Positions 34,863 through 63,373 of a stretch of 64,000 nt of DNA are shown here, one piece after another. A program made the translations under genes and the position numbers. Every line of letters begins with the position of its first letter. The first letter of the stretch is position 1. The stretch comes from Rickettsiales bacterium (GTDB lineage: Bacteria; Pseudomonadota; Alphaproteobacteria; Rs-D84): assembly GCA_031266915.1 (NCBI GenBank), contig JAISAB010000024.1:23571-87570 (forward strand). Reading direction: 5' to 3'. The notes below the pieces were generated by a model, which saw nothing but the letters and a program-made list of their open reading frames with translations, searched no databases and had not been told where the DNA came from.

Positions 34863-34961
34863 AGAAATCAGCACGGAATATTAAAATTTAAGATATAAGA
34901 TTTGACGCCGACTAAATCTTATATCTGAAATCATAAATCTTAAATCCCACCATTTTCATAA

Positions 34962-35199
34962 TTGACTTTTGTTTTTATTTGAACTAGTATCAACATGCCG
35001 CGGAGAGTTTCCGCGGCGAGGTGTCAGAACCTCGGTCATACGCGTCGTGATATGTTGGCGCATTGTTGCGCCTTTGTTTTTATCACGATGGAAAATATGT
35101 CTCCTGACCTGGTCAGGAGGGCGGCTGAATATATAGAATAAGCGGCACAATTCGTATGATTGTTCTGAACCTCCTGACCGCCTTTATACGGCGGTTTTT
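34962..35199 (+). promoter_or_regulatory. structured leader RNA, copy B
   Basis: The promoter is TTGACT-17-TAGTAT. P1 is GCCGCGGA-GAGUU-UCCGCGGC and P2 is GAGGU-GUCAGA-ACCUC. The four segments are CUCCUGACC (35101), GGUCAGGAGG (35111), CCUCCUGACCGCC (35170) and GGCGGU followed by U5 (35190). Confidence 0.75.
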
Positions 35200-35226
35200 G
35201 CTTAACCAATGTAAAGGAGGATTGGA

Positions 35227-35799
35227 ATGAGATTCAGATTAATTTCAGTTTTTGCCGTCGCTGTGGCGCTTTGCGGCATGGACAGGGTATATGGTGCAGG
35301 ATTTCAATGTCCATCTAGCGGCGAATGCACTTGTCCGAACGGAGGGACTGGTTGTGTATGCGATGAAAATAATTATATAGATACATCCAAGTGCTGCAGA
35401 AAAGACTGTTCAAATAAATGCGCCGACGGCATCTGGAAACCCTCAAGCGTCAGTGGACATGAGGCTTATCACAATGCGCAGTTGCAAAAATCATCGTCGT
35501 GCACATGCGCAGACGGTTTGACAAGCTGCACCGCGACTTGCGGTTGCATTAACGTGGGGGTTTCAGACTACCGCTGCGCCGTCGGATACTATGGCACCAG
35601 TGTTGACGGAACATCAGGATGTACGCAATGCCCGCTGGTGGTCGGAGTGTATTCCGATTCGTTTCTAACATATGAAGCAAGGGGGACGACCGTTGATGCG
35701 GGAAACGGCAAATCGCAATCTGATTGCTATCTGGCAAACGGTGGAAAATATTACGACGCGACTGGGGATTTGACGCTAACGGGTAATTGTACTTACTAG
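35227..35799 (+). CDS. secreted cysteine-rich protein, paralog B
   Basis: The signal peptide is MRFRLISVFAVAVALCGMDRVYG. Shared motifs are DYRCAVGYYGTSVDGTSGCTQCP and the C-terminal SDCYLANGGKYYDATGDLTLTGNCTY. Confidence 0.8.
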   Translation: MRFRLISVFAVAVALCGMDRVYGAGFQCPSSGECTCPNGGTGCVCDENNYIDTSKCCRKDCSNKCADGIWKPSSVSGHEAYHNAQLQKSSSCTCADGLTSCTATCGCINVGVSDYRCAVGYYGTSVDGTSGCTQCPLVVGVYSDSFLTYEARGTTVDAGNGKSQSDCYLANGGKYYDATGDLTLTGNCTY

Positions 35800-35817
35800 G
35801 GTCAGGACTCATTAAAT

Positions 35818-37818
35818 TCACGCGCCCGGCATAGTTAAAATTACTTCTGCCTTTTGCCTTTCGCCTTCTGCCTTTCGGTGCCACCAGCGGTGCGACGGAG
35901 TGTATTCGATTTTTCCCGATTCATAAATGACAAAGCCGCCGCGCGGAATCTTGTGGTCGCATGTCGCGCTCTCGACCTTGAAATATGAAACGATAAAATC
36001 GATTTTTGGGTCGTTGCAAAACGCCGAGATGTTTCGGGCCAAGGGCACATATCTTTGAACATACGCCAGCGTCCAATTCGGCGTTTTGTAAACACAGACA
36101 CCGCGTTCGCACTTGCGGCGACGGTTGTCCGTATCGGCTGGCTCGTAATTCAAATGCTTCCAAGATTCGAAGGCGAAGTAATGGTTGGACGCGCGCGCCT
36201 TGTTGAATTCCAATTTGTCATTCGCGACGAACGCGACCAATTCATGGTCGTCCGTCGCATAGAACATTGGCCGCGGCCGCAGCGCCGCGACCGCCACGCC
36301 CGCCAGCACCAAGACGGCGAACATAACATAATTCGCCCGCCGGGCTTTGACGAACATCAGGCACAGAAACCCGAACAACATCAGCAGCAGCGCCGCGCCC
36401 GTTATGGGTGGAATTTGAATCTGGGCGAACGGCATGTCTGAAATCCTGTCGGCTGCTGCCAGCGCGAATCTGTAAATATTTTCGCTTAAATCCAGCGGCC
36501 AATGAAACCCGAACAGCGATGTTGCTGTTCCAATCATAACCAATGGCATAATCGCGAAAGAAAATATCGGCAGCAAAATCAGATTGCCAACAAGACCGTA
36601 AATCGGCAGAGAATAAAAATGATACGCCGCGAACGGCGCGGTAAAGATTGTCGCGACGACGGATGTCATCGCGGCCGCCCGAACTACGCGCGCGGCCTTG
36701 CGTGCAAACGACATCTTTTCGTGTTTGCTATCCCCGAAAAACCAAACCAGTCCGAATATCGCCGCGAACGACAGCTGGAATCCCGGCTGCATCACATAGT
36801 GCGGATTCATCAGAAATATCAGCATGAACGCGATGCAGACATTGCGCATTGAAAACGCGTTTCGTCCCAGTACGAATGCAGCGACTATCAGTGTAGTCAT
36901 CAGAAACGCGCGGACGGTGGCGACGTCGATTCCCGACAAGAACAGATAAAACAACAATCCCAGCCATGCGCAAATCATGGCGGGGTATCTGGCCGGAATA
37001 CGTCTGGTAATCGGCGCAACAGCGCGAAAGACAAGATAGAACAGCGCGAACAGCCACCCGCCGACCAATGTCATATGAAAACCACTGATTGACCAGACGT
37101 GGCCTACGCCGGTCGCCGTCCATGCGGGCGCGTCGTTTTTCGAAACCGCGTTCTTGTAACCCAGAACCAAAGCATCAGATAAAAACGAATTCGTTTGTCT
37201 GTGAATGTGATCGCGCAGATTATTTATCCCGGCGGATTCAGTTGCCGCCGCCGGTCGGTCTTTGTAATCATTCACATAGCCCGTCGCGCTGATTCCGTTG
37301 AAATACGCCCAGCGTGCGTAGTCGAACGCGCCCGGTGCCGATGGACCGGATGGCTTGAACAATGTCGCGGTCGCATTTATCCGGTCGCCGATTTTCGGCA
37401 AAGTATAATCGCCGCCAATGGACAGCCGGACCAGCGCGGTCCGGGTTTCGGACAAATTTTTGTTGAACAAATTCGCCGGAATTTTCACGAACAGGCGGGA
37501 CTTGTCATTCGTATAATCAATGTTCGCGACGACGCCCGTGATTTCCGCATTGCGCAGATTGTGTGACAATTGCGGCGTGTCGATAAAACGCGTGAATCCG
37601 CATGCGTAAAAGAACCCGAACAGCAGCAGCGCCGCACCGGTCGCGATAACGCCCGTTCGGCGGAAAATCAGAATTGCCCCGCACAACAATGAAATAAGAA
37701 TCGGAAAGGCGATATTCGGTTCGCGCGCCATTGAAAAGTACAGGCCCGCGCCGATGGCCATCACAAACGGCGACCACAGGAATAGATTTTGAAACTGATT
37801 TTCCAGGAAATGCTTCAC
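35818..37818 (-). CDS. comEC: ComEC/Rec2-family DNA internalisation channel protein
   Basis: 666 aa and polytopic. The competence-domain motif is GVGHVWSISGFHMTLVGGWLF. The start codon is GTG. No C-terminal metallo-beta-lactamase motif was seen. Confidence 0.8.
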   Translation of the reverse strand: MKHFLENQFQNLFLWSPFVMAIGAGLYFSMAREPNIAFPILISLLCGAILIFRRTGVIATGAALLLFGFFYACGFTRFIDTPQLSHNLRNAEITGVVANIDYTNDKSRLFVKIPANLFNKNLSETRTALVRLSIGGDYTLPKIGDRINATATLFKPSGPSAPGAFDYARWAYFNGISATGYVNDYKDRPAAATESAGINNLRDHIHRQTNSFLSDALVLGYKNAVSKNDAPAWTATGVGHVWSISGFHMTLVGGWLFALFYLVFRAVAPITRRIPARYPAMICAWLGLLFYLFLSGIDVATVRAFLMTTLIVAAFVLGRNAFSMRNVCIAFMLIFLMNPHYVMQPGFQLSFAAIFGLVWFFGDSKHEKMSFARKAARVVRAAAMTSVVATIFTAPFAAYHFYSLPIYGLVGNLILLPIFSFAIMPLVMIGTATSLFGFHWPLDLSENIYRFALAAADRISDMPFAQIQIPPITGAALLLMLFGFLCLMFVKARRANYVMFAVLVLAGVAVAALRPRPMFYATDDHELVAFVANDKLEFNKARASNHYFAFESWKHLNYEPADTDNRRRKCERGVCVYKTPNWTLAYVQRYVPLARNISAFCNDPKIDFIVSYFKVESATCDHKIPRGGFVIYESGKIEYTPSHRWWHRKAEGERQKAEVILTMPGA

Positions 37819-38032
37819 CGCCGGACACCAAAAGAATTTTGGTTAAAAGGCGGTCGGGACATTAAGCAAGTTATATTCCAAACCTCTGTCGCCTTTGGGT
37901 TTCCCCTGTGGTATAGCAACAGTGTCCCGACCTTTTTGGTCGAGACATAAATTAATCAGGAATATGGGTGCTTAACCCTAATGATGTAATTTACATCGTG
38001 ATAAATATACAATTTATCCTGTGGCTGTACAA
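37816..38032 (-). promoter_or_regulatory. structured leader RNA, copy E (start-codon-sequestering variant)
   Basis: The promoter is TTGTAC-17-TATATT. The segments are CUCGACC / GGUCGGGAC / GUCCCGACCGCC / GGCGGUG. The final GUG is the comEC start codon, and no U-tract follows. Confidence 0.6.
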
Positions 38033-38043: not shown

Positions 38044-38167
38044 AATAGTCATTAGTCTATAGTCGTTAGTCAGTAGTCAATAGTGGATAGCGAATAGCAC
38101 ATAGCAATCTAGCTGTAATACTACAAACTATAAACTACTGACTAACGACTATAGACTAATGACTATT
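38044..38167. repeat. heptamer-built palindrome (TAGTNNN units)
   Basis: A perfect 34-bp inverted repeat, AATAGTCATTAGTCTATAGTCGTTAGTCAGTAGT (38044-38077) / its reverse complement (38134-38167). The spacer also has a 7-nt period. Confidence 0.9.
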
Positions 38168-41000: not shown

Positions 41001-41261
41001 ATTTCGACACGTCTTCAACGTATCGCATTAAGCAGGCTTTTCTAAGGCCCCGAACCCAAATCCTTTTGGATTCAAACGAATTGTAAAACATTCCGGATGT
41101 TATTTCAATGTAATTTTTTTGCATGGTTTTTATGACGCTTCGCACCATCATGTTTTGCGCATGCCGGGACAAGGCGGCCGTATCCGGCGGAAAATTAAGA
41201 ATTAATAATTAAGAATTATGGTTTGCCGCCGCGCGGCCCGTTTATTCTTAATTCTTATTTT

Positions 41262-41582
41262 TTAATTCTTAATTCCGAATATGAATTCAGGATTTGCGGA
41301 CAGGGCAATAATCGCGTCCATGTTGTCGTCAGCGCTGGCGCGCTGGCGCCGTTGCTTGCCGCATTTCTCGCATTTGTGGGTAATTACAAAGTGGTCGCCA
41401 ACGGGCGCAACGGCGACGGGTCGCATCATTCCGCCGCAGGTGCCAGCCCTGTCGCCCGGGTTGACATCCACGTCGCGCGACCACAGGCATTTCGGGCAAT
41501 GGTTCGTATAGCCGCCGCCGTGCACGGCCGCTCCGCAATGCGCGCAGGTAAAGTCTTCAATGATGCGGATGAATTTTTTCAT
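41262..41582 (-). CDS. RNHCP-domain zinc-ribbon protein
   Basis: FTCAHCGAAVHGGGYTNHCPKCLWSRDVDVNPGDRA matches the RNHCP signature, and a second CEKCG ribbon is present. Confidence 0.7.
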   Translation of the reverse strand: MKKFIRIIEDFTCAHCGAAVHGGGYTNHCPKCLWSRDVDVNPGDRAGTCGGMMRPVAVAPVGDHFVITHKCEKCGKQRRQRASADDNMDAIIALSANPEFIFGIKN

Positions 41583-41658
41583 GAAAGATACGAGATAGGA
41601 GATACGAGATGCGAGATATTCAACGCCGAACTAATATCTCCTATCTTCATATCTGGAA

Positions 41659-43508: not shown

Positions 43509-43630
43509 AATATAAAACAACTAGTGCATAGTGATTAGTTTATAGTGCATAGTTACTAGTTTACTAATCACTATTAACTATGCACTAATCACTAATGTTT
43601 TGGATTTTTGATGCTATCCTTGATATAAGA

Positions 43631-43880
43631 AAACGGGGGGTTGATGAGGCCCCCCGCATGCACGCTATCCACTTCCATACTCCCAATATGGAAGCAAAAA
43701 ACCGCTTTTATAACAAAGCGGCTGGAGGCTAGTAACAATAATGTGAATTGCACGACTTATTCAATATATTCGTCGTCCTCCAGCCATATAGCTGGAATCC
43801 ACATATACAGGTTACTGGGCCTCATCGCGGAAACGCTCCACGACAAGGGTTATTGTACATTGTAAATACGATTTTTGCAA
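43631..43880 (-). ncRNA. orphan copy G1 of the structured RNA (no downstream ORF)
   Basis: The promoter is TTGCAA-17-TACAAT. P1 is UCGUGGA-GCGUU-UCCGCGA. The segments are UUCCAGC / GGCUGGAGG / CCUCCAGCCGC / GCGG followed by U6. A GGA-rich tail comes next, then a second terminator GGGGGGCCUCAUCAACCCCCC-GUUUU. Confidence 0.65.
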
Positions 43881-43892
43881 GCGATGATTTAA

Positions 43893-44144
43893 GAAACAGG
43901 GGGTTGATTAGGCCCCCCGCATGCGCACTATCCACTTCCGTATCTCCCATACGAAAGCGAAAAAAACCGCCTTTATAACAAAGCGGCTGGAGGCTAGTAA
44001 CAATTCAAGAATTGCACGACTTATTCAATATATTCGCCGTCCTCCAGCCATTTATGGCTGGAATCTTGATACAGGTTACTGGGCCTCATCGCGGAAACGC
44101 TCCGCGACAGTGGCTATTGTACATTGTAAATACGATTTTTGCAA
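43893..44144 (-). ncRNA. orphan copy G2 of the structured RNA (tandem duplicate of G1)
   Basis: It has the same architecture as G1, 264 bp upstream. The promoter is identical (TTGCAA-17-TACAAT). The P1 stem is UCGCGGA/UCCGCGA. Confidence 0.65.
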
Positions 44145-44156
44145 GTTTTTTCGACT

Positions 44157-44375
44157 GGTCCAACCGACAGAAATGTATTTTTTTGAACAAAAACAACTTT
44201 GTTGTTTTTGTCATCCCGGCGCAGGCCGGGATAGGGTCTATTAACCGTGAGCGAAGCGAACCAAAAACCATGGCAATGCTTCGCATTGCGGTTGATGGTC
44301 CCTATTCCTGCCTGCGCAGGAATGACAAACCTCTTTCAGAGGTTTGTTTAAAAAGATACATTCGATGTCAGTTGG
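44157..44375. mobile_element. MITE-like deletion derivative of the GIY-YIG element
   Basis: It has the same outer ends (CCAACCGACAGAAATGTAT... / ...ATACATTCGATGTCAGTTGG), the same inner hairpin modules (GTCATCCCGGCGCAGGCCGGGATAGGG / CCCTATTCCTGCCTGCGCAGGAATGAC) and the same AAACCTCTTTCAGAGGTTTG hairpin as 45700-46238. It lacks the ORF. Confidence 0.65.
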
Positions 44376-44506: not shown

Positions 44507-45655
44507 ATGAAAAAACTGTTCAGAATATCTGTTATCTGTGCTCTGTTATCTGTTAACTGCGCAGCCTATGGCGCCGGGTACCGGGCCGCGCTGGTCGCGG
44601 ATATGGATACCGGGCGCGTGCTGTACCAAGAAAACGCGACCGATTTGAATTATCCGGCGTCCCTGACCAAAATCATGACGCTGTATCTGACGTTCGACGC
44701 GCTGGAACACGGGCGTCTGCACTTGGATGACCATCTGATTGTCTCTGAAAGCGCGGCCGCCGCCAGCCCGGTAAAGCTGGGGCTGAAGGCCGGCAGCAAG
44801 ATTAAGGTCGAAGACGCGATTAAGGCCGTCGCCGTCCACAGCGCGAACGATGTCGCGCGCGTTTTGGCCGAAAACCTGAAGGGTGGGAAAGAGGGCAACT
44901 TCGCGTTCCTGATGACCCGGGTCGCGACCGAAATCGGATTGTCCAAAACCAACTTTGAAAATTCGTCCGGGTTGCCGAACGATGACCAATTGTCGTGTGC
45001 GCGCGACATCGCGCTGCTGTCGATGGCGGTGTACAAACACTTTCCGCAATACTGGAAATATTTCGGAATCAAGACCTGGACTTACGATGGCAAGACCTAT
45101 GCCAACGGCAACCGCCTGTTGAATTCCTATCCCGGGTGCGACGGCATGAAGACAGGATACACGAACAAATCGAAATATTCCCTGGTGGCTGCGGCAAAGC
45201 AGGGCGACAAGCGGCTGATGTCCGTCGTTCTGGGCGCCGAGAACAAAGACATTCGCGCGGCTGTTTCGACCCGAATGCTGGACAAGGGCTTTGCGATTGC
45301 GGGCGGCCGGGCCGTTGCGCCGACGCCGGTTGCGCCGACGCAGGTCGAAAAGCGCAGAGCGCAGAGCGCAGTCGAAAAATCGCAGGGCGATTTTTCATCG
45401 AATCACGAATCACAAATCACGAATCACGGCATCGCCGGCGGCGCGGCTGGTGTTCAGTTCGGCGCGTTTTCGTCCCAATCGGCGGCGCAGACCCAGGTGG
45501 CGAATGTTATGAACAAACTGGGCGTGCGCGCGAATATCGAGCCGACGGGCACCGGCATGTACCGCGTGCGCGCGAACGGATTGTCGGAAACGGCCGCGCA
45601 GAGAATCCGTGGCGACGCGTCCGCCAGCAGCATCGACAGCTATGTGTTTCATTGA
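44507..45655 (+). CDS. D-alanyl-D-alanine carboxypeptidase (PBP5/6 class) with a C-terminal SPOR-like domain
   Basis: The signal peptide is MKKLFRISVICALLSVNCAAYG. The catalytic motifs are SLTK (SxxK), SAN (SxN) and KTG. The C-terminal GVQFGAFSSQSAAQ...MYRVRANGLSETAAQRI is SPOR-like. Confidence 0.85.
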   Translation: MKKLFRISVICALLSVNCAAYGAGYRAALVADMDTGRVLYQENATDLNYPASLTKIMTLYLTFDALEHGRLHLDDHLIVSESAAAASPVKLGLKAGSKIKVEDAIKAVAVHSANDVARVLAENLKGGKEGNFAFLMTRVATEIGLSKTNFENSSGLPNDDQLSCARDIALLSMAVYKHFPQYWKYFGIKTWTYDGKTYANGNRLLNSYPGCDGMKTGYTNKSKYSLVAAAKQGDKRLMSVVLGAENKDIRAAVSTRMLDKGFAIAGGRAVAPTPVAPTQVEKRRAQSAVEKSQGDFSSNHESQITNHGIAGGAAGVQFGAFSSQSAAQTQVANVMNKLGVRANIEPTGTGMYRVRANGLSETAAQRIRGDASASSIDSYVFH

Positions 45656-45699
45656 TTAAGGCAGAAGTCAGAAGGCAAAAGTATTTCTGATTTATAATT

Positions 45700-46238
45700 T
45701 GCTCAAGTGACAGGAACGCACCTTATTAAAACAAAAGTTTGTTATACAAACTTTTGTCATTCCGGCGCAGGCCGGAATAGGGCCTATTGAATTTCGGTTT
45801 TCGACATATTTTTAATATACTCATCCAAACTGTCGGCCAAATCTTTCCAACAGGGATTCATCGTTTCTATTAATCGGTATTTCCAAGCGCGTTTCCAGTC
45901 TTTTAACGTTTTTTCGCGCGCAATCGCGTCGTTTACGTATTTATAATGTTCAAAATATCCAAGCTTTGTTATATCCTTTTCTTTTGTAAATCCGTCTACT
46001 AGTCCCATTTTATGTTCTATCATTCTGCGCTCAATATCATTAGTCACACCGACGTATGTGGCCTTGGCGCGTTCGTTGAACAAAATATAAACCCAAAAAT
46101 GATGTTCTTTGAATTCTCTCATATGTAAAGATGGTAAATATTTAAAGAAACTTTTTCAAGACCCTATTCCGGCCTGCGCCGGAATGACAAACCTCTTTCA
46201 GAGGTTTGTTTAAAAGGTACACCCTTGTCGGTTGAGCA
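45700..46238. mobile_element. GIY-YIG gene cassette bounded by nested inverted repeats
   Basis: The outer imperfect inverted repeat is TTGCTCAAGTGACAGGAACGCACCTTA / TAAAAGGTACACCCTTGTCGGTTGAGCA. The inner 29-bp inverted repeat is GTCATTCCGGCGCAGGCCGGAATAGGGCC / GACCCTATTCCGGCCTGCGCCGGAATGAC, with 1 mismatch. Confidence 0.65.
45784..46122 (-). CDS. GIY-YIG nuclease-family protein (UPF0213-like)
   Basis: HFWVYILFNERAKATYVGVTNDIERRMIEHK contains the GIY...YIG-type motif (VYIL...YVGVT), the conserved R and the glutamate E. Confidence 0.8.
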   Translation of the reverse strand: MREFKEHHFWVYILFNERAKATYVGVTNDIERRMIEHKMGLVDGFTKEKDITKLGYFEHYKYVNDAIAREKTLKDWKRAWKYRLIETMNPCWKDLADSLDEYIKNMSKTEIQ

Positions 46239-46283
46239 CTATTATTTATTCTTTGTTAACTGAAAATGGCGAATGACTATTCG

Positions 46284-46829
46284 TTACTTTAAAACCGCGC
46301 CGGACCAGTAGCAATTCTCGGTGTATTCAAAGGTGCCTGTTTCATCCTGTTCTATTACCCCGGCCGGTATATAGCAGTTTAACATTGAGCTGCCGCCCCA
46401 AGACGTCGCATTGACATTGTTGGTCTCCATTCTGCAATTTTTGCAATTTGCGAATCCAAGAGTATTGCTGAAAAAGCCCGCCGGACAGCTATCGAAATCA
46501 AGACAAAAGCCCCACATGCTCATAGATACCGATAAATCCAAACCATCTACATAATTTTCTGCAACACCGATAGCTTCCTCGCCCGCATTGATGGTTGAAC
46601 ATATACTGCTTTCAAGAGCCGTAGTATATCTCGAACAAACATCGCCATACGCCATGGAATTAATCGTATTAAAATCATAACCCATACCATTATACTGGTA
46701 CTCGTAATAAGATATCAGGTTTGACATTATATGGCATAAAATCTCGTCGTCATCGGATATTGCGGAAACGGGACTCGTCAGCGATACGCTTACAAGGGCG
46801 GCGGCGGCCCAAGTGATGAATTTTTTCAT
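46284..46829 (-). CDS. secreted cysteine-rich protein, paralog D
   Basis: The likely start MKKFITWAAAALVSVSLTSPVSA is a signal peptide. It has CPAGFFSNTLGFANCKNC and the C-terminal NCYIPAGVIEQDETGTFEYTENCYW. Confidence 0.75.
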   Translation of the reverse strand: MKKFITWAAAALVSVSLTSPVSAISDDDEILCHIMSNLISYYEYQYNGMGYDFNTINSMAYGDVCSRYTTALESSICSTINAGEEAIGVAENYVDGLDLSVSMSMWGFCLDFDSCPAGFFSNTLGFANCKNCRMETNNVNATSWGGSSMLNCYIPAGVIEQDETGTFEYTENCYWSGAVLK

Positions 46830-46853
46830 TCCAACCTCCTTTTTTTGTTTGGG

Positions 46854-47104
46854 AACGAAAGAACCGCCCAAAAAAGGCGGTCAGGAGGTTACAAACAATC
46901 CACATGAAATTGTGCCGTGTCTTCGATATATAACATCAGCCCTCCTGACCAACAGCCAGGAGCTTATTCTTCGCCGCAATAACAAAAAACACGCGAAACG
47001 CGCGCTGTTTAAAATTGCGACGCATGTGGAAGGAGTTTGTACACCCCGTCGCGGGAACACCCCGACGACAACATCAGTGTAATTCAAAGCGCCCCGCGTT
47101 TCAA
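46854..47104 (-). promoter_or_regulatory. structured leader RNA, copy D
   Basis: The promoter is TTGAAA-17-TACACT. P1 is GUCGUCGGG-GUGUU-CCCGCGAC, with one bulged U. The segments are CUCCUGG / GGUCAGGAGG / CCUCCUGACCGCC / GGCGGU followed by UCUUUCGUU. AGGAGG and the ATG come next. Confidence 0.7.
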
Positions 47105-47160
47105 CAATTATTTCATAATTCTTCTTTATTTATCTGGCAAATTTGGCTATGGTTTTCGGT

Positions 47161-47757: not shown

Positions 47758-47786
47758 AATTAAGAATTAAGAATTAAAAAGTACAA

Positions 47787-48665: not shown

Positions 48666-48753
48666 CATATAGCGAATAGCAGGTAGCGCATAGCTGCTTG
48701 AGTGTAATGCCATCAGCTATACGCTATTTGCTATATGCTATTCGCTACTGGTT
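48650..48753. repeat. heptamer-built palindrome (TAGCNNN units) overlapping the rsmA stop
   Basis: A 31-bp inverted repeat, AACCAGTAGCGAATAGCATATAGCGAATAGC (48650-48680) / GCTATTTGCTATATGCTATTCGCTACTGGTT (48723-48753), with 1 mismatch. Confidence 0.9.
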
Positions 48754-48827
48754 ATCTACAGTTTGTTTTACCTCCATAATTCTGATACAATTTGGTTTAT
48801 GGAAAAGCAGTGGGGAGAGGGCGGCTT

Positions 48828-50525: not shown

Positions 50526-50646
50526 CAGATAACAGAGCACAAATAACAGTTATCGGTTCTAGCTACTAACGACTAGCTACTAGCTACTAATAGTTGCAAT
50601 CGACCGCGTATGTTGCTATATTCCCCGGTGAACCCAAGGACAGGAT

Positions 50647-51162: not shown

Positions 51163-51238
51163 TCCGTAATTCGTAATCCGTAGTTGGATTGTCGGATTAC
51201 CTATTACCTATTACCTATTACCTATTGCGGAGCAAATA

Positions 51239-53675: not shown

Positions 53676-54080
53676 TTATTTTGTCAGATACCTGTACAGT
53701 TGGTCAGGTGTCAAAATAAACGGGTTGCGAATCCCCAATGCGCGCCGCGCCATGGCAACGCAAGAAACAGAGTTCAGAGTACAAAGTTCAGATTGCAGAG
53801 TGCCGTCACCCCGGCGCAGGCCGGGGTCAGAGTTCAATTTTCGGTTTGTTTTTACAAACACCCAGCCGTTCTTTTCCAGTATCTTTAAATCGCGGGCCGA
53901 CACATTCAATACATGAATGCCCGTTTTTACTTTGTGAACGAACAAATATCTGCACTTTGATCCCGGCCTGCGCCGGGGTGACGGCACTCTGCACTCTATT
54001 ACTATGGCGCAGTGGCGGAACCGCCGGCAAAAGATGCGCGGCAATATCTTTGATGTTTTTGATGTGAATCCGATAAGCAT
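53676..54080 (-). CDS. hypothetical protein whose reading frame runs through a perfect 31-bp inverted-repeat pair
   Basis: 134-aa ORF. The inverted-repeat arms at 53795-53825 and 53962-53992 are translated in frame (SDPGLRRGDGTLQS / ECRVPSPRRRPGS). The flanks have His..Cys spacing reminiscent of permuted NlpC/P60 proteins, but this is weak evidence. Confidence 0.35.
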   Translation of the reverse strand: MLIGFTSKTSKILPRIFCRRFRHCAIVIECRVPSPRRRPGSKCRYLFVHKVKTGIHVLNVSARDLKILEKNGWVFVKTNRKLNSDPGLRRGDGTLQSELCTLNSVSCVAMARRALGIRNPFILTPDQLYRYLTK

Positions 54081-54170
54081 AGCAAAACCTTTTAGTCACT
54101 AGCGTATAGTGTATAGTGCATAGTGATTAGTGAACTAGTTAACTATTCACTATGCACTATACACTAATCA

Positions 54171-54524
54171 CTAGTGGTTATTTATCCATCCCTTGGCGGT
54201 TGCCGCGGTTTCCAGCGTATGCATGGCATCGCGCCAAATGGCCGCTTTGCGGTTTTCCGACCAGATGTGCTGGTGCGGTGTTCGTCTTTTGTCGCCGAAT
54301 TCTTTCATGACGGCCAGCTGTTTGTCAGTCAGCCGTCCCGACAGATAAAGCTTGGTAATCAAAGTTTCCACATCCAGCAATTCGCACGCGCGTTTTGTGG
54401 ATGAAAAGCTGCCGGAACGAAAGCCGTTACGGGTCGCCTTGGAATATAGAAACCAGAACCATAGCTGCTCGGCGCTTTGGAACTTTTCAGCGTTTGAATG
54501 TGATTTCACTGTTTGTACAGTCAT
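54171..54524 (-). CDS. hypothetical protein downstream of the VirB10-like gene
   Basis: 117 aa (MTVQTVKSHSNAEKFQSAEQLWFWFLYSK...). No motif was recognised. Confidence 0.45.
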   Translation of the reverse strand: MTVQTVKSHSNAEKFQSAEQLWFWFLYSKATRNGFRSGSFSSTKRACELLDVETLITKLYLSGRLTDKQLAVMKEFGDKRRTPHQHIWSENRKAAIWRDAMHTLETAATAKGWINNH

Positions 54525-54842: not shown

Positions 54843-57200
54843 TCAGGTCATTGGCGGAAAACAATCCCCGCCGGCGGCCGGACAACAATTGAAACCGTCT
54901 GCGCCCATATCGGTATAGGTCTCGCCGGTGCAGCAACCATTGGCGTCCGGCGCCGTTTTGTCTTCGCACTGCAGCGCGGCGGGCGGCGTTTCAACCGGCA
55001 ATTGTTTGAACGGATTCTGTACCGTGCCGTTGTCGTTATAATTCAGGCCCAATACGTTTTCGTTATACTTTTGGGTGCCGGTCTGCAGTTTGTCCCATTG
55101 TTTGGTCTTGTCATCGTAGACCGCGTTACTAGTCGTTTGCTGGTTCTGGTACACAGCCGCCTGTTTCGCGTTGTTGATTGCCTTGTATTGCGCGGACTGG
55201 CAATAAAACAGAACAGTACGGTAATCATAGCCGGCCGCTTGGATTTGCTTTTCCTGCCCCTCATTTACGCCGCCTGTGAAATTTCCATTGGCGTCTCTTT
55301 TGCAATATCCATCCATATCGAACGAGCGCACCTGACCGGTCATGGAACCGGCGTTTTCCGCCGACTCACCTATGCCGGATGGTCTTCCCGGGTTATCAAC
55401 GCGTGGGTTGGAGCCATACGTCTCTATGGCGCATTTTTTATTGCTTTCCGTCGGGGCGCCGCATGTAACCAGCAAATCCACAGGCGAAAATACGGTAATG
55501 CGCGTGCCGGCGGCAATCGAGAAGGGCGGCACGGTGTTGTCCATCATATCGACCAACAATTTCTGAGCCACCTTGTTCCAGGCGGTGACGATTTCATTCT
55601 TGGCCAGTTCGGACGAGCGAACTTGGCCGCTTTGCGTCACCGTGTTATTGTCTAAATCAATCTGGTTGACAAACCGATCTGAAATCGGCGCAATCATATT
55701 TACCGCCGCCGGCACAACCGCCGTCAGCATCGGCATGACGAACTGTTCCAGATAATCCGTCGAGCCGCGGCCCGGCACGCCGATTCGTCCCTGGGCGTCG
55801 CCGGAAAACGGATTTTGTCCGGTGCCGAAATTAAATTCGACGCCATCGGGGCGGACGAACTGATACCAGTTGACCTGCATCCGGCCGATGGCCTTATAAG
55901 GGCCGGGCATATCGCCGGTGACATAGCCGTACAAAGTCGTTCCTGTTGGCACAATGATGGTGCGGCCATTGTCGGAATAAACATTCCGGTCGACGGTCGC
56001 GATGATGGGCAATATGTGGTCGTCGGTTATCAGTCTTTGTTCGGCGCGGATTTCAGAAACGATTGTCGCCGGTATCGGCTTGTATTGCCGCAGTATGAAC
56101 GTACGGTCATAAGGCGCGCTGGACACGACTGTGGTGCCGCTGGACGTCATAATTTTGTCTGTCTTTTGCACAAAACCCGGATTAAGAACCGACAGTCTTT
56201 GCGAAGTGCCGTACGCTGCGCCGGCCAAATCTGCGGATTCCAGCTGACGCGCGCGGTTGACATTCTTAGGCGCGACCGGATTTGACAGTTGCGGAATCGC
56301 ACCGTTGGTAATCGACGCATAGCCGATATGGTCCGCATCCGTCCCAATCTTGCGTCCGGAATTATTTATATCCATGATTATGCCGTTGTCGGGATTATAA
56401 GTCCCGGTCGGGGAATCGCAATTCTTGTCCGAAAAGGGATGAAAGAAATATGCGCCGCCCTTGGGCCTGATCCATCCGATTTGTTGGCCCGATGCGCCGT
56501 ATCCCGGGAACGCGAAATCGGAACAATCTTCGGCCGACAGCTGCAGCGCCGGCGCCGCGACGACGAGCGGTGCGGGCGACGGTTCGGGCACCACAGGGAC
56601 GCTTGGGATAATCGGCGCGACCTTTTCCTGAACAATCGGGGCGGGCGCCGCCGGTTTATGTTCAGGTTCAGACTCAGGTTCTGGTTCAGGCTTCGCAACC
56701 GGGGTGGCCGCGACCGCGATGGTAATCTTGTCGGTGCGCTTTATGATGTTTTCCAGCTGCGACGCGTCATGCCAGTCGACGAACAGCGACGCGCCGCTGA
56801 CATCGGCCGGTATCGTCGGCGCGTATTCGACGCTGATGGTGCACGAAACCTTGTCGCTGATTCCGATGTTCGGGCAGGTCGTTTTCGGTTTCGACAATCC
56901 GGGAACGTCATTGGATGGCGGCCGGACCGCGTCGATTTTGACCGGCTTGTCGGCCATAACGGTAAATGTTTGGGTTTTGACCTCTCCGACTTTGGTCGTT
57001 GTCCAATCGACGGTATCGGGGTCGATGGCTATGGACGCCGGAACGGTTTCCGTCGGTTCGGCAACCGGGTTCTTGTCACCTTTTAGCAACAGAACCAGCA
57101 AAATCAAGACAACGATGAACGCTGCGGCCAACAACAGCCACTGCACATGTTTCGGCGTGTTTTTTCTGAGTTCTGAAAATTGCGTTTTTAATGATTGCAT
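54843..57200 (-). CDS. VirB10/TrbI/DotG-family type IV secretion protein with extra N- and C-terminal modules
   Basis: It has an N-terminal TM segment and a Pro-rich linker (KPEPEPESEPEHKPAAPAP). The TrbI-like core is ATVDRNVYSDNGRTIIVPTGTTLYGY...MQVNWYQFVRPDGVEF...IAAGTRITVFSPVDL. A Cys-rich tail of about 200 aa follows. Confidence 0.8.
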   Translation of the reverse strand: MQSLKTQFSELRKNTPKHVQWLLLAAAFIVVLILLVLLLKGDKNPVAEPTETVPASIAIDPDTVDWTTTKVGEVKTQTFTVMADKPVKIDAVRPPSNDVPGLSKPKTTCPNIGISDKVSCTISVEYAPTIPADVSGASLFVDWHDASQLENIIKRTDKITIAVAATPVAKPEPEPESEPEHKPAAPAPIVQEKVAPIIPSVPVVPEPSPAPLVVAAPALQLSAEDCSDFAFPGYGASGQQIGWIRPKGGAYFFHPFSDKNCDSPTGTYNPDNGIIMDINNSGRKIGTDADHIGYASITNGAIPQLSNPVAPKNVNRARQLESADLAGAAYGTSQRLSVLNPGFVQKTDKIMTSSGTTVVSSAPYDRTFILRQYKPIPATIVSEIRAEQRLITDDHILPIIATVDRNVYSDNGRTIIVPTGTTLYGYVTGDMPGPYKAIGRMQVNWYQFVRPDGVEFNFGTGQNPFSGDAQGRIGVPGRGSTDYLEQFVMPMLTAVVPAAVNMIAPISDRFVNQIDLDNNTVTQSGQVRSSELAKNEIVTAWNKVAQKLLVDMMDNTVPPFSIAAGTRITVFSPVDLLVTCGAPTESNKKCAIETYGSNPRVDNPGRPSGIGESAENAGSMTGQVRSFDMDGYCKRDANGNFTGGVNEGQEKQIQAAGYDYRTVLFYCQSAQYKAINNAKQAAVYQNQQTTSNAVYDDKTKQWDKLQTGTQKYNENVLGLNYNDNGTVQNPFKQLPVETPPAALQCEDKTAPDANGCCTGETYTDMGADGFNCCPAAGGDCFPPMT

Positions 57201-57202
57201 CT

Positions 57203-57285
57203 TACCGTAATCCGTAATCCGTAATCCGTAATCCGTAATCGGAGGAATCGGATTACCGATTACCGATTACCGATTACCGATTACG
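57203..57285. repeat. heptamer-built quasi-palindrome (CCGTAAT)5 ... (CGATTAC)5
   Basis: It fills the VirB9-like/VirB10-like intercistronic gap. The arms pair at 6 of 7 positions per unit, with a regular C:C mismatch. Confidence 0.85.
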
Positions 57286-57287
57286 AT

Positions 57288-58757
57288 TTACTGTATCCTT
57301 ACCACGTGGCAGTTAGCGCCGCTGAACTTCAGCATTTGGTCGCATAGTTTCTGGGCGCTGTCTATGTCTGACATCGGGCCTATGCGCAAGCGGTACAGCC
57401 GCGCGGCGGACGAATCGGAGCCCAAATCGCCGACGCCCTGTTCGTCCACTGCGAAAAAGACCATATTCTTGTAAGGGGTCAGCAGGCCTTGGCCGTCTTC
57501 GCCGCTAAGCTTTGCCAGCAAAGACGTCCAATAATCGTTCAGTGCCTTGACCGATGTGTCCGAACGCAGTTCGACCGCGACGCCCGCCTGGTTGCTGCTT
57601 ATCAGCGGGATATTTGTCTGTGGCAGGTATGCGCCGGTCGTGTTTCTTTCTGTCGGAATCATCATAACGCCGCCTTTGCCGCCGGCATATCCGCCGCCCA
57701 TGGGCGCACTGTACGACATTGTCGGCGCGACGCCGTAACCGTTCGTCGCCGCCATAGCCGGCTGTTGCCCGCCGCCGACATAGGTGCCGTTCAGCGACTG
57801 GCTGCTGTACATGGACTGGGCGACGTTCGCCTCGGCCAGGGCCATGACGGACGCAGTATCCGCAATCAGGAACGGCTTTTCGCGTTTCTTGATGCATACG
57901 ATTCGCTGGCCGCTGCGCAGTATCATGTCGCCGACGGCCTCGATTATCAATAATCTTCCGTTTTCGCCGTCGGTGCGAAATCCGACCGGGGATTCGCCGC
58001 CTTCGACCAACAGGGATACGACGGGACGCTGGGTCATCGCGATAACCTTGTCGCCAAAGTCGATATAGGTGAAGATTCTATCGCGCCACACGCGTTCGGG
58101 CGCGATGACGTAATCGTCGGGATTCGGCACAAAGATGTCCAAATCGAAACGGAATTCAGACGGGTCGATTTTCATGGATTTAATCCAGCCGTAATCTTCG
58201 CCGTCTACGCCCAAAGCAGCAGAACCGCCGGTGGAGGCCTTTTTAAAGATGGAATTCATGCCCGAAGACGGCGCGCCGGTCGCTGACGCCGCCGGCAGTG
58301 CGCGGTTGCCGTCCAACACGACGTCGACCTGAGAATAGGTGATTTCGCTGCTGTTTGCCGGTTCGCTGCGCAGATAGAAAATGTATTTATTTCCGCTTTT
58401 GCCCGTGACAATCAGGTTTGTGTCCGCACCCATATTGGTTCCCTCGGGCGTGATGTACATCGAGCGTCCGCCGTTTTGCGGCGCGAATTGGAACAGGTCG
58501 CTGTTGCCGACGACGCCGTCCTCGATTTGTTCGCCATCGGGCAGGTTAACCATAGTGACCATGCCATTGCGCAGCTTGATGGGCAGAACGCTGCCCGCCG
58601 ACCAGGTCAGCTGGGCGTATCCGGGTTTCAAGGAACCCGCGGCCATGTTCGCATTCGGGTTATCCCAAGCCTCTTGGATGCCGACCTCGGCTGCACTCGC
58701 GGCGCGCGCGCCGCAAAGAATAAAGAATAAAGAATAAAGAATAAACTTTTTTAACAT
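57288..58757 (-). CDS. VirB9/TrbG/DotH-family type IV secretion protein fused to a C-terminal SPOR-like domain
   Basis: It has a signal peptide. The VirB9-like N-domain is VLPIKLRNGMVTMVNLPDGEQIEDGVVGNSDLFQF...TNLIVTGKSGNKYIFYLRS. The C-terminal LYRLRIGPMSDIDSAQKLCDQMLKFSGANCHVVR is SPOR-like. Confidence 0.75.
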   Translation of the reverse strand: MLKKFILYSLFFILCGARAASAAEVGIQEAWDNPNANMAAGSLKPGYAQLTWSAGSVLPIKLRNGMVTMVNLPDGEQIEDGVVGNSDLFQFAPQNGGRSMYITPEGTNMGADTNLIVTGKSGNKYIFYLRSEPANSSEITYSQVDVVLDGNRALPAASATGAPSSGMNSIFKKASTGGSAALGVDGEDYGWIKSMKIDPSEFRFDLDIFVPNPDDYVIAPERVWRDRIFTYIDFGDKVIAMTQRPVVSLLVEGGESPVGFRTDGENGRLLIIEAVGDMILRSGQRIVCIKKREKPFLIADTASVMALAEANVAQSMYSSQSLNGTYVGGGQQPAMAATNGYGVAPTMSYSAPMGGGYAGGKGGVMMIPTERNTTGAYLPQTNIPLISSNQAGVAVELRSDTSVKALNDYWTSLLAKLSGEDGQGLLTPYKNMVFFAVDEQGVGDLGSDSSAARLYRLRIGPMSDIDSAQKLCDQMLKFSGANCHVVRIQ

Positions 58758-58830
58758 TTCTATTTCTCCAGAATTTGTAATTAAAGAAACAAGACGAAAG
58801 AAATTTATTCTTTATTCTTTATTCTTTATT
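58715..58830. repeat. heptamer-built palindrome (AGAATAA)4 ... (TTATTCT)4 spanning the VirB9-like start
   Basis: The left arm (58715-58745) encodes residues 5-14 of the VirB9-like signal peptide. The right arm (58804-58830) is intergenic. The loop contains GGAG and the ATG. Confidence 0.85.
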
Positions 58831-58848
58831 CACTTGGATTTCATGCCT

Positions 58849-59523: not shown

Positions 59524-59680
59524 GCTCCTTATCCTCTCCTTTGTTAAAGGATTGTAGAAAAAAAACAACGGGCCGCGCAAGCAAAAAAATAGCAATTAGC
59601 AAATATCAAATAAGGCAGAAATAAATTTAAGATTTATGATTTGGCGCAAGCTTGCCTACTTCTGCTTTTTGCCTTATTTG

Positions 59681-59863
59681 CTATTTTCCCACGGCAGGTT
59701 CGACGGGAAATCTTGGCAAGACGCTGACTTGTCCACCAAAGACAAAAATATCAGTCCCCCTTGAAACAACTTTAACAGCATATCTTCTGGGATTTCCAAT
59801 TTGCCGTTTGCGTATTCCATAAATTGCCTTTGCGCGATTTCTAATAATCAGGCCGCCTGACAT
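59681..59863 (-). CDS. small basic hypothetical protein between leader F and the T4SS genes
   Basis: 60 aa with no Shine-Dalgarno. It overlaps the end of a 24-codon ORF that does have an AAGGA Shine-Dalgarno. Its coding status is uncertain. Confidence 0.3.
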   Translation of the reverse strand: MSGGLIIRNRAKAIYGIRKRQIGNPRRYAVKVVSRGTDIFVFGGQVSVLPRFPVEPAVGK

Positions 59864-59954: not shown

Positions 59955-60168
59955 TAAAAAAAGACCACCATTCGAAAGGTGGCCGGGAGTTCATCGGTCA
60001 GAAATACTTAACCCCGTTGCCTTTGGCCGAAACCTGTTATATAGCAACAGCATCCCGACCTTGGCCGGGACACTTGGTAGATTGGTACTTCGGGGCGATG
60101 AAACCCGTTCACACTAACAAATGTCTATTCAATACAGGGCATTATACACTATTTTTCTGAATTTGCCA
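59955..60168 (-). promoter_or_regulatory. structured leader RNA, copy F (upstream of the VirB8-10-like operon)
   Basis: The promoter is TGGCAA-16-TATAAT. The segments are UCCCGGCC / GGUCGGGAU / UCCCGGCCACC / GGUGGUC followed by U7. The interior CUGUUGCUAUAUAACAGG..CCAAAGGCAACGGGGUU is shared with copy E. Confidence 0.65.
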
Positions 60169-60423: not shown

Positions 60424-60512
60424 ATTTTCGTGACACGTGATACATAGCGCGTGTACGAAATAAAAAAAGTCGTGTCACGTATTTCGTGTCACGTGTTACG
60501 GATTACGGAAAA

Positions 60513-61258: not shown

Positions 61259-61415
61259 AAAGGCAGAAGGCAAAAGGCAAAAGGCAGAAATGTCCGATGC
61301 GCGGAGCCCCTGCCGCAAATTGTGGAAGATGCGCCACATCGCACCACAAACACTAACTGCGGTTGGTATTCGGCATTCGGCATACTTCTGCCTTTTGCCT
61401 TTTGCCTTCTGCCTT
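61259..61415. repeat. heptamer-built palindrome (GGCAGAA/GGCAAAA units) between nusG and rplK
   Basis: A 30-bp perfect inverted repeat, AAGGCAGAAGGCAAAAGGCAAAAGGCAGAA / reverse complement. The arms are separated by about 95 nt. Confidence 0.9.
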
Positions 61416-61864: not shown

Positions 61865-61868
61865 AATC

Positions 61869-62543
61869 ATGAAAACGACAAAAAGACAAAAAACTTGGAC
61901 CGCGTTGGATGCCGACAAAGTGTATCCGATTGCGGACGCTATCGATGTATTGCGCGGTTTTTGTTCCAAAAAATTCGATGAGAGCCTGGAAATCGCCGTC
62001 CGTTTGGGTGTCGATGTGACCAAGGCCGACCAGAATATCCGCGGCATGCTGTCGTTGCCGCACGGCACTGGCAAAACAGTTCGCGTCGCTGTGTTTACTG
62101 AGAACGCCCAGGCCGATGCCAAAAAAGCTGGCGCTGACATTGTCGGCGGTGAAGAATTAATCGACAAGGTGGTCGGCGGCTTTCTGGATTTCGACCGCGT
62201 TATCGCGACGCCCGACATGATGCCGAAGATGTCGAAAATCGCGCGCGTTTTGGGACCAAAAGGCCTGATGCCTAACCCGAAACTGGGTACGGTTACGAAC
62301 GATGTTGCGGGCGCAATTGCGACCGCCAAGGCCGGCCAGATTGAATATCGCGCCGAAAAAAGGGGCATCGTCCACGCCGGAATCGGCAAGATGTCTTTCA
62401 CAACGGACAAGCTGGTCGAAAACGTGGCCGCGCTGATAGACCAGTTGAAAAAGATTAAGCCCGCGTCCAGCAAGGGCCAATATATTCTGGGTTGTTCCGT
62501 CACGACGACGCAGGGACCCGGTTTGAAAGTAGAGGCCAAGTAA
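61869..62543 (+). CDS. rplA: 50S ribosomal protein L1
   Basis: FDESLEIAVRLGVD and GTGKTVRVAVF are present, with typical L1 length and position. Confidence 0.97.
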   Translation: MKTTKRQKTWTALDADKVYPIADAIDVLRGFCSKKFDESLEIAVRLGVDVTKADQNIRGMLSLPHGTGKTVRVAVFTENAQADAKKAGADIVGGEELIDKVVGGFLDFDRVIATPDMMPKMSKIARVLGPKGLMPNPKLGTVTNDVAGAIATAKAGQIEYRAEKRGIVHAGIGKMSFTTDKLVENVAALIDQLKKIKPASSKGQYILGCSVTTTQGPGLKVEAK

Positions 62544-62755
62544 GTTAAAGGATAAGTTATAACTTATCCTTGCGCGGCGGCGCTGCCGCGCATCAGGTTT
62601 CTGTCCAAGACTGATGGTGTCGGGCAAATCCCGGCTTAATTGCCATCATAGACAAAGAGATAAATCTTTGGGGCAGGAAAAAGCCCCATCCCGACGGCGT
62701 CCGCGCGATGCCGGCCGGTGTGGAAAGTTGAACGAAAAAGTAAGGATATGATAGA

Positions 62756-63229
62756 ATGAGACGCGAAGAAAAATCAGATTTGATTTCAGCGTTGCAGTCG
62801 TCATTGAAAGAAGCGAACGGTGTTTTCGTTGTCGAAAATCACGGTTTGACGGTCCGCGAAATGGAAGAGCTGCGCAGGGAACTGCGCCCGCTGGTTTCCA
62901 TGTTCAAGGTCGTCAAAAACCGTCTGATGAAATTGGCATTGGCTGACACTGATTTCGCGCCTGTATCCGATTTGATGAAGCGTCCGACGGCGGTCGCGGT
63001 TGCGACAGACGCGCTGGCCGTTACCAAGGTCTTGGCGGGATTCGCCGACGCTCATCCGAATCTTTCCATCGTTGGTGGAAAAATGGACGCGGGTGTTCTG
63101 GATACTGACGGCGTTATGCAATTATCCAAACTTCCTTCTCTGTTGGAAATCCGCGGCACCATCGCGCGCATACTGGTCGAACCGGCATCGCGTCTGGCCC
63201 GCGTTTCAGCGGAGTATGGAAAAAAGTAA
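62756..63229 (+). CDS. rplJ: 50S ribosomal protein L10
   Basis: 157 aa between rplA and rplL, with the L10-like pattern GLTVREMEELRRELR. Confidence 0.9.
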   Translation: MRREEKSDLISALQSSLKEANGVFVVENHGLTVREMEELRRELRPLVSMFKVVKNRLMKLALADTDFAPVSDLMKRPTAVAVATDALAVTKVLAGFADAHPNLSIVGGKMDAGVLDTDGVMQLSKLPSLLEIRGTIARILVEPASRLARVSAEYGKK

Positions 63230-63373
63230 ATTAAGAATTAGGAATTAAGAATTAAGAATTAATTTTCTTGGTTCGTGTCTTGGTTCTTGTAATAAAGCGT
63301 AAGGATTTTGATTTTTGTGGTTGAGAGTTTTACATTTGAATAATTCTTAATTCTTAATTCTTAATTCTTAATT
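63229..63373. repeat. heptamer-built palindrome (TAAGAAT units) between rplJ and rplL
   Basis: A 32-bp inverted repeat, AATTAAGAATTAGGAATTAAGAATTAAGAATT (63229-63260) / AATTCTTAATTCTTAATTCTTAATTCTTAATT (63342-63373), with 1 mismatch. Confidence 0.9.

Follow-up and report, generated by a model that had tools for sequence, protein, structure and literature searches.

A 64-kb stretch of DNA from a Rickettsiales bacterium (64,000 nt, positions 23,571 to 87,570 of contig JAISAB010000024.1 in assembly GCA_031266915.1; hereafter the window) contains 35 tandem arrays of 7-nt units, most of which face an inverted partner array across a spacer and many of which occupy the interval between the stop codon of one gene and the start of the next. 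As tandem arrays of heptanucleotides, these elements belong to one general kind with the short tandemly repeated repetitive (STRR) sequences of cyanobacteria and the GGGAATC repeats of Xanthomonas, and they are recent and lineage-specific. Heptamer repeats have been known in bacteria since 1990 and, to our knowledge, neither their origin nor their function has been established. New here are the host, the density of the arrays, the dominance of paired arms, the use of units that are not G-rich and the comparison with syntenic relatives that are free of arrays. As to their origin we favour, at about even confidence, a mutational process of birth and decay made up of 7-nt slippage at stop codons, inverted copying by short-range template switching and selective filtering.

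Arrays were called where at least 16 of 21 positions matched at a lag of 7 nt, with 30 local-composition shuffles as the null. An excess over shuffled sequence, on which the first-pass annotation had staked its description of pervasive heptamer palindromes, is clear, the 35 period-7 arrays standing against a mean of 0.07 in the shuffles; head-to-tail 7-nt arrays in such excess are what defines the heptanucleotide tandem repeats of the long simple-sequence repeat (LSSR)/STRR class. In the same lag scan of the window, periods 5, 6 and 8–11 gave 0–2 arrays apiece and a stricter threshold of 18/21 left 18 period-7 arrays against 0 in dinucleotide shuffles. Tandem Repeats Finder returned about 45 rows with period 7 or 14. 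Perfect 12-mers with a reverse complement no more than 300 nt away were found at 34 loci where 5.8 are expected. About 25 of the 35 arrays form 14 inverted-repeat elements, so that the inverted architecture proposed by the annotation stands for these and fails for about 10 arrays without an inverted partner. The best gapless arm pairs measure 18–41 nt and are 82–100% complementary, and the RNA folds of the elements reach -24 to -66 kcal/mol (z = -3.6 to -12.3), which bears out the claim that degenerate tandem heptamers here build genuine hairpin-forming palindromes; every locus that had been named was recovered where it had been placed. The arrays are predominantly intergenic: intergenic sequence makes up 19% of the window and holds 907 of the 1270 array bases, and the remaining 363 lie inside open reading frames (ORFs), namely in the VirB9 signal peptide, the N-terminus and loops of KsgA, DacC, the end of ComEC and hyp134. 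Pervasive they are only in part: 33 of the 35 crowd into 34.7–64 kb, the spread is very uneven, and a low-GC island at 14.4–24.1 kb has none. Arrays cover 15% of the intergenic sequence at 34764–64000 and 2% of the core intergenic sequence at 1–34763, with similar GC content in the two halves and a GC skew that is monotonic throughout.

The arrays are fitted closely to the ends and starts of genes. At rplJ, virB9, hyp117, lspA, ksgA, kefB, recR and RNHCP, the start of the proximal arm coincides with or overlaps the upstream stop codon, whereas at virB8, pyk and nusG it lies 12–18 nt past it. The stop codon of the upstream gene lies inside the first units at no fewer than 8 junctions, and sense-strand stops are present in 11 of 12 stop-proximal arrays compared with 30% of background intergenic heptamers. 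The distal arm terminates 2–18 nt before the next start and leaves a GGAG free at rplL, rplK, yidC and hyp134. Elements had been reported at the rplJ–rplL, nusG–rplK, virB8–virB9 and virB9–virB10 junctions, and all four are in place. Between virB9 and virB10, a (CCGTAAT)5/(GATTACC)5 hairpin (57203–57287; dG -47.5, z -7.8) spans exactly the interval from the VirB9 stop to the VirB10 AUG, in the order UAA, 84-nt stem-loop, AAG, AUG, and a GATACGA/GATAGGA hairpin (41586–41654) fills the gap from the GapR stop to the RNHCP start in the order stop, 4 nt, stem, 3 nt, AUG. At virB8–virB9, an (AGAATAA)4/(TTATTCT)4 hairpin (58718–58831) has one arm 18 nt past the VirB8 stop and the other (TTTATTC x4) encoding the hydrophobic core of the VirB9 signal peptide, while its loop holds the GGAG ribosome-binding site and the AUG. 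At nusG–rplK, two perfect 30-nt arms of GGCARAA units (61260–61415; 30/30 paired, dG about -93) stand one on each side of a spacer motif that is conserved in relatives, and at rplJ–rplL, an (AATTAAG)5 array on the RplJ stop is answered by an inverted copy that ends 18 nt before the RplL AUG (63229–63373; 32/33 paired, z -8.1).

Further junctions follow the same layout. An AATTAAG palindrome with a GC-rich loop (41193–41274) overlaps the RNHCP stop codon, a TAGTGNN palindrome (43522–43597) starts 14 nt past the Pyk stop, and an AATTAAG x6 array runs from the RecR stop into an ATCCATC x5 array (47752–47828, plus strand) which encodes, following Met-Lys-Asn, an insertion of 9 aa in KsgA. A TAGCNNN palindrome (48648–48755; arms of 33 nt at 97% or 47 nt at 85%, dG -65.9, z -11.2) carries the KsgA stop in its left arm, a TAACAGA array on the KefB stop is followed by a quasi-self-complementary CTAGCTA array (50523–50589, plus strand), and the LspA stop lies in the CGTAATY left arm of an element with TATTACC in its right arm (51151–51227; 82% paired, z -3.6). 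A second TAGTGNN palindrome (54097–54176; arms of 40 nt at 88%, dG -47.6, z -10.6) reaches from the stop of hyp117 to a point 16 nt short of the start of hyp134. In-frame arrays occupy tolerant coding stretches: a TATCTGT x4.9 array in the N-terminal coding part of the DacC-like penicillin-binding protein (44526–44559, plus strand), AGCGCAG x3 and CGAATCA x4.3 arrays within the DacC-SPOR ORF (45344–45428, plus strand), an AGTTCAG array within the small conserved gene hyp134 (53768–53801), a GGCARAA-type array without a partner within the 3' end of the ComEC ORF (35844–35877) and, besides the N-terminal insertion, two loops of KsgA, where an ATCCATC-type inverted pair (48144–48271; arms of 27 nt, 85%) coincides with two small insertions relative to a solved KsgA structure. 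Some elements sit between divergent genes, such as the TAGTCNN/TAGCNNN palindrome between ComEC and PyrG (38044–38167; 39/41 paired in 41-nt arms, dG -65.5, z -12.3), for which the reported perfect 34-bp arm pair is correct and corresponds to the outer 34 bp, and the decayed composite of GGCAGAA and ATTTAAG types upstream of VirB8 (59594–59686). The ATTTAAG/ATATAAG palindrome in the TruA–hyp190 spacer (34886–34946; arms of 18 nt, 94% complementary) is far from gene ends.

That the elements are recent follows from comparison with relatives. The window carries the genes for LeuRS, GyrA, NrdDG, ComEC, PyrG, GapR, Pyk, RecR, KsgA, LspA, YidC, VirB8/9/10, NusG and RplKAJL, its VirB10 is 44–61% identical to proteins from metagenome-assembled genomes of gut alphaproteobacteria, including Candidatus Enterousia, and the nearest match to its VirB9 in 5.8 billion proteins reaches 86% identity. 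Its host is a member of the order Rs-D84, reduced-genome gut alphaproteobacteria that are relatives of Candidatus Enterousia and have genomes of 0.67–1.6 Mb with about 90% coding sequence (PMC12306168). Sixteen relatives (L001–L016) keep the gene order from RNHCP to RplL, a conserved stretch of 22 kb, and their 285 kb contain 3 marginal period-7 arrays compared with 35 in the 64-kb window. Nearly every junction of the window exceeds those of all relatives by about one palindrome length: the spacers measure 76 nt in the window and about 0 nt in the relatives at RNHCP–GapR, 87 and 5–46 nt at VirB10–VirB9, 91 and 29–69 nt at VirB9–VirB8, 76 and -4 to 35 nt at LspA–YidC, 126 nt and, in most relatives, at most 25 nt at KsgA–KefB, and 162 and about 50 nt at RplJ–RplL. 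Even the closest relative, which carries the 86% identical VirB9, has gaps of 27 nt at virB8–virB9 and 15 nt at virB9–virB10 where the window has 91 and 87 nt. Since the spacers of the window are longer by about the length of a palindrome and the relatives are array-free, the elements are recent gains of this lineage. At hyp134–hyp117, the relatives have an ordinary short hairpin and the window has a heptamer palindrome in its place, and at kefB–lspA, heptamer arrays stand where the relatives have a GC-rich terminator hairpin. A related contig from a metagenome scan, L057, has one array, which is unpaired.

The state of the arms indicates how the elements change. The first-pass annotation had held that the opposite arm copies the degeneracy of the first exactly, and that either the hairpin or a recent inversion-duplication is maintained. 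A recent inverted duplication or homogenisation of arms does fit several elements, in which the arms are 95–100% alike compared with about 76% for the units within an arm. Exact copying is seen at 61260, 63229 and 38044 and breaks down at 57203 and 51151, where the arms were homogenised separately, each being internally uniform and 1–2 nt per unit off from its partner; at 57203–57285, which had been put forward as a matching arm pair, one systematic mismatch per unit leaves 31/35 positions paired. Overall, the elements form a graded series from 61260, 63229 and 48648, which are 100–97% paired, to the decayed 43522, 59594, 34886, 45658 and 10079. With well-matched arms at some elements and uniform but divergent arms at others, it seems that inverted copying is still going on and so is turnover within arms. 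Among the mismatches of the well-registered stems, 8 would allow wobble pairing on the sense strand and 9 on the antisense strand, and these counts give no sign of selection on RNA pairing.

The reading that we favour starts from replication slippage, which would amplify a 7-nt unit at or over the stop codon of a gene, the position at which the proximal arms lie. Slippage would be tolerated there because extra copies leave the protein unchanged and a stop-bearing unit closes all three frames. An inverted copy of the array would next arise some tens of bases further downstream, with a short-range template switch during replication as the most plausible route, giving a near-perfect palindrome at once; near-perfect arms around ancestral spacer sequence in the loop are found. 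Selection would then purge inserts that damage genes or bury a ribosome-binding site, and the survivors would be those which fill the interval from stop codon to ribosome-binding site exactly or which fall into tolerant coding sequence such as signal peptides, termini and loops. A self-folding insert would be the least disruptive, because the base of the stem holds the stop codon and the next start close together. Finally, the arms would turn over by more slippage and homogenisation and their pairing would decay, in keeping with the graded series from perfect to decayed elements. On birth and decay the hairpins would not be present for a function, a corollary that we hold with the same even confidence, and the absence of arrays from the recently acquired low-GC island lends the reading support. 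Among the long simple-sequence repeats of many bacteria, heptanucleotides rank first in frequency, which has been ascribed to polymerase slippage (PMC4679880), and template switching can create and perfect hairpins (PMC8794818, PMC5941160, PMC13100816). The likeness to template-switch hairpins lies in perfect inverted arms that arise in one step and in arms that are homogenised and extended; they differ in that they have not been described on tandem heptamer arrays or at the density of the window, and a role for them here is a proposed one. Local seeds are suggested by the spacer of the closest relative (L013), which has CCGATTAC at the position of (GATTACC)n in the window, and by rplJ of two further relatives (L008/L009), which ends with AAGAATTAA at the position of (AAGAATT)n; both cases are suggestive.

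Several observations weigh against this account. None of its steps has been directly observed, and it explains neither the 15-fold gap in array density between the halves of the window nor the restriction of the arrays to this lineage and not its relatives. In-situ seeding is not enriched: an 8-mer from the arrays is present in 7 of 134 spacers that are orthologous and in 135 of about 2240 that are not (5.2% vs 6.0%); an earlier seeding test based on the longest match was confounded by low complexity. The enrichment of stop codons is partly circular, because an ORF that enters an array is ended by the array. The two arms of an element differ by no more than one unit, a balance not expected from pure drift. 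When elements are folded whole, the sense strand is favoured by a mean of 2.6 kcal/mol in stability, with 46 G-U pairs against 19, which would fit some selection at the RNA level; we treat this G-U excess as weak evidence because it comes mostly from loop regions and alternative registers. Moreover, unlinked elements have a common unit order or composite structure (43522 and 54097; 10079, 45658 and 59598; 34884 and 59623), which hints at some copying between loci and is not what purely local birth would give. As reported in the first pass, the GGCAGAA, ATTTAAG and AGTTCAG families do recur at sites that are not linked. The common descent of the two TAGTGNN palindromes cannot be read from their identity of 76–85%, which is near the roughly 79% expected from the unit pattern alone, and the sole argument for it is the AT-TA-CA order of their variable dinucleotides. 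An identical 31-mer in the unrelated contig L118 and a 79% match in L063 proved trivial, being explained by the TAGTGNN unit pattern, and the overlap of the heptamer repertoire with that of other organisms is at about chance level.

The hairpins might instead be selected RNA elements on polycistronic mRNA, acting as RNase III processing sites, as 3' stabilisers that set the ratios of operon products or in translational coupling, where the stem would pair the region of the stop codon with the next initiation region and translation of the first gene would unmask the second. We hold this to be rather unlikely. The near-nucleotide fit to the stop-to-start intervals at virB9–virB10 and gapR–RNHCP, junctions that overlap or abut in relatives, speaks for it, as do the GGAG and AUG presented in the virB8–virB9 loop, the slightly more stable sense folds with their additional G-U pairs, the unit number balanced between arms and a palindrome in the unrelated contig L081 that also has one arm in a region coding for a signal peptide. 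All 16 relatives, however, express the same operons without the elements, the stems are free of a wobble bias, decay is visible at 51151 (z -3.6), 43522 and 59594, and some elements lie between genes that diverge (38044, 59594) or well away from any gene end (34886). The stems are long and often A/T-rich where intrinsic terminators have a short GC-rich stem, a loop of 3–8 nt and a U-tract, no T-run follows the palindromes at operon junctions, a terminator scan of 44–64 kb did not flag them, and Rfam searches of the window at the gathering threshold and of 61.2–63.4 kb at E<=1 matched tRNAs only. An origin from non-autonomous mobile palindromes akin to MITEs (miniature inverted-repeat transposable elements) or repetitive extragenic palindromic (REP) sequences, moved by a transposase or recombinase encoded elsewhere and with arms that happen to evolve by heptamer slippage, appears less probable still. 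Dispersed copies with a common unit order or composite structure would suit it, as would non-heptamer outer stems at some elements (ATAACCAG...CTGGTTAT at 48648, AAAACAAC...GTTTT at 43512) and a separate GC-rich REP/MITE-like family in the same genome that frames a GIY-YIG gene and lies in frame inside a gene. Yet most loci have a heptamer of their own and hence form no single family, the identity of the TAGTGNN copies is that expected from unit constraint, the empty sites compared in relatives lack target-site duplications, and the 64-kb window encodes no REP-associated tyrosine transposase (RAYT) or IS200/IS605 gene. At nusG–rplK the arms flank the ancestral spacer, which is not a simple insertion, and at hyp134–hyp117 the ancestral hairpin is replaced and not displaced.

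The arrays could also be platforms for a protein that binds in steps of 7 nt or 7 bp, for instance an omega/ParG-type repressor with the ribbon-helix-helix fold or single-strand binders of the cold-shock type, each covering about 7 nt. Repressors of the omega/ParG type recognise WATCACW heptads, arrayed directly or inverted, and their operators consist of contiguous heptads with one dimer on each, beside par or copy-control genes. TAGTGAT reads ATCACTA in reverse complement, and the TAGTGAT arrays contain AATCACT, which we take to fit the omega heptad WATCACW, a partial resemblance confined to TAGTGAT units. CspB, for its part, binds heptamer repeats with one protein per unit (PMC4679880). The at least 10 unrelated heptamers in use are beyond any single sequence-specific binder, however, and the heptad is fitted by only some units of one family, which makes a protein platform highly doubtful. 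An artefact of assembly or amplification is very unlikely, and we give it next to no credence. The contig does come from a metagenome assembly and has no second copy on record, but the arrays (up to about 45 nt) and elements (up to about 160 nt) do not exceed the length of a read or insert, they lie in the interior of a 97-kb contig, the genes on either side are undamaged and in the order seen in the 16 relatives, and many independent assemblies, as well as finished Xanthomonas genomes (PMC4692102), show this architecture too.

Birth and decay at gene junctions has to be seen against the heptamer repeats of other bacteria, in which much of this architecture has precedent. In Xanthomonas, 70 of 186 and 75 of 183 GGGAATC arrays form convergent pairs (PMC4692102, Rehm et al. 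2015). These repeats and the GGGGAYT repeats of Nostoc are mostly 4-unit arrays, degenerate at some positions, and are found chiefly between co-oriented ORFs; the Xanthomonas arrays are transcribed, the sense array lying at most 50 bp from a stop codon or overlapping it and the antisense array at most 50 bp upstream of the next ORF (PMC4692102). The window has the same close convergent arrays, with convergent stem-loop pairs (38–41% of arrays there), a stop-proximal sense array and an antisense array before the next ORF. It differs from Xanthomonas, whose single G-rich family has been read through G-quadruplexes, in that at least 10 mostly A/T-rich or mixed units are used (TAGTNNN, AATTAAG, CGTAATC, AGAATAA, GGCARAA and others) and none contains a G3 tract, in that about 70% of the arrays are paired, in a density about 10–20 times higher per kb and in its host, a gut alphaproteobacterium of less than 1.6 Mb. 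Because the window shows the stop-proximal convergent layout without G-quadruplex-forming sequence, the G-quadruplex explanation of the Xanthomonas repeats is weakened.

A metagenome scan for TAGTGNN x4 matched at least 120 contigs of 31–71% GC. Among the matches listed, textbook TAGTGNN palindromes starting from a stop codon occur in L018, L019, L044, L053, L061, L067, L081 and L096, unrelated contigs of 44–70% GC in which the arrays lie within a few bases of the stop of a long ORF and the inverted partner follows after a spacer; in L019, a canonical terminator stands between the two arms. A perfect 12-mer inverted partner is found for 11 of 24 window arrays (46%) as against 35 of 258 (about 14%) in other heptamer contigs, again among the matches listed. 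The inverted architecture, which had been called unusual, is thus shared with Xanthomonas and with unrelated metagenome contigs, and the diversity of units, likewise called unusual, has its counterpart in Microcystis, with several heptamer types per genome (PMC4679880), and in other heptamer-rich contigs; neither is unprecedented.

The comparison with cyanobacterial STRR-type repeats made in the first pass was apt. The window units presumably differ from the STRR consensus units, and with an Rs-D84 alphaproteobacterium as the host, the elements are not STRR sequences in the strict sense. As the work of Mazel (1990) and Mrazek (2007) is summarised in two papers (PMC4679880, PMC4692102), the cyanobacterial STRR and other heptanucleotide LSSR have the 7-nt period, the intergenic location, several unit types per genome and the lack of an established function in common with the window; they differ in being direct arrays in large free-living hosts, for which paired inverted arms are not defining. 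The TAACTGA repeats of marine Beggiatoaceae occur in 2–6 copies directly upstream of start codons and in forward orientation, with 1 of 170 sets inverted (PMC4679880). Like the window units, they are rich in stop codons and flush with gene boundaries, including those of ribosomal-protein operons, while a single heptamer and a start-proximal, forward placement set them apart. REP sequences and bacterial interspersed mosaic elements (BIMEs), Correia elements and Rickettsia palindromic elements (RPEs) are also intergenic hairpins that gather after stop codons, and RPEs insert in frame into genes; these are, however, single transposed families without a 7-nt periodicity, where most loci of the window have their own unit. 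A REP/BIME assignment, with one high-copy family, a conserved head and a RAYT, does not apply to the many unrelated units of the window, which has no RAYT.

Arrays outside the crowded half or without a partner complete the catalogue. Composite unpaired arrays of AAGGCAG and then ATTTAAG type (10079–10140) lie beyond the range covered by the first pass, and a composite AAGGCAG/AAGTCAG array after the DacC stop (45658–45697) has the AAGTCAG variant in common with them. A weak TTATAAC array (31478–31506) lies in the HAD–RmuC spacer, and a weak AGTTCAG array (24226–24252) adjoins tRNA-Gln. In the VirB10 ORF, a period-6 array of GTTCAG x5.2 (56660–56690) has a sequence related to that of two AGTTCAG heptamer arrays, those at 24226 and 53768. 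The low-GC island (14273–24145; 31–41% GC), which contains 0 heptamer arrays, adjoins tRNA-Gln as well and carries genes for a serine recombinase, an OLD-family nuclease, an endonuclease VII-like protein, a Rep-like protein, a protein with a Gp10_C baseplate domain and an ORF with a CdiA_C toxin domain.

Further repeats accompany the arrays. The GC-rich REP/MITE-like hairpin family GTCAYYCCGGCGCAGGCCGGRRTAGGG has six copies (44206–44242, 44300–44353, 45752–45788, 46162–46215, 53801–53837 and 53950–53986): two frame the GIY-YIG nuclease gene (45784–46122, minus strand) as inverted repeats, another two pair up across about 95 nt without a gene between them, and two lie in frame in hyp134 as insertions of 6–11 aa relative to relatives, much like Rickettsia palindromic elements. 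The GIY-YIG gene and a 195-aa ORF belong to a 1.5-kb segment between DacC and RecR (45656–47142) and, as DacC and RecR abut or overlap in nearly all relatives, this segment is a lineage-specific insertion. The Pyk–DacC spacer measures 971 nt in the window and 28–123 nt in relatives, and within it a 264-bp unit is tandemly duplicated (43621–44145; 2.0 copies, 87% identity). A 47-nt motif, GTCGCCTTTGG...CTGTGGTATAGCAACAG...CCCGACCTT, recurs at 66–77% identity upstream of pyrG (37888–37934), upstream of tRNA-Trp/secE (60016–60062) and inside the island (20056–20102), and could be a promoter, an operator or a small RNA. Between tRNA-Trp and secE, three copies of a TCGTGTCACGT-like motif are found (60424–60500).

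For the biology of heptamer repeats, the comparison of sequences with and without arrays over 22 kb shows that arrays have been acquired, which positions tolerate them and that they age. A broader generalisation, to which we give little weight, would be that paired heptamer arrays running from stop codon to initiation region are a general, unnamed class of intercistronic element in many phyla, independent of G-quadruplexes and either grown by a hairpin-guided slippage ratchet or kept for translational coupling or insulation; if so, this lineage would be its clearest natural before-and-after case. In the host itself, transcribed stems of 25–40 bp in the rplJL, rplKA and virB8-10 operons should affect mRNA folding and processing, translational coupling and the stoichiometry of the products, and the arrays could serve as hypervariable strain markers.

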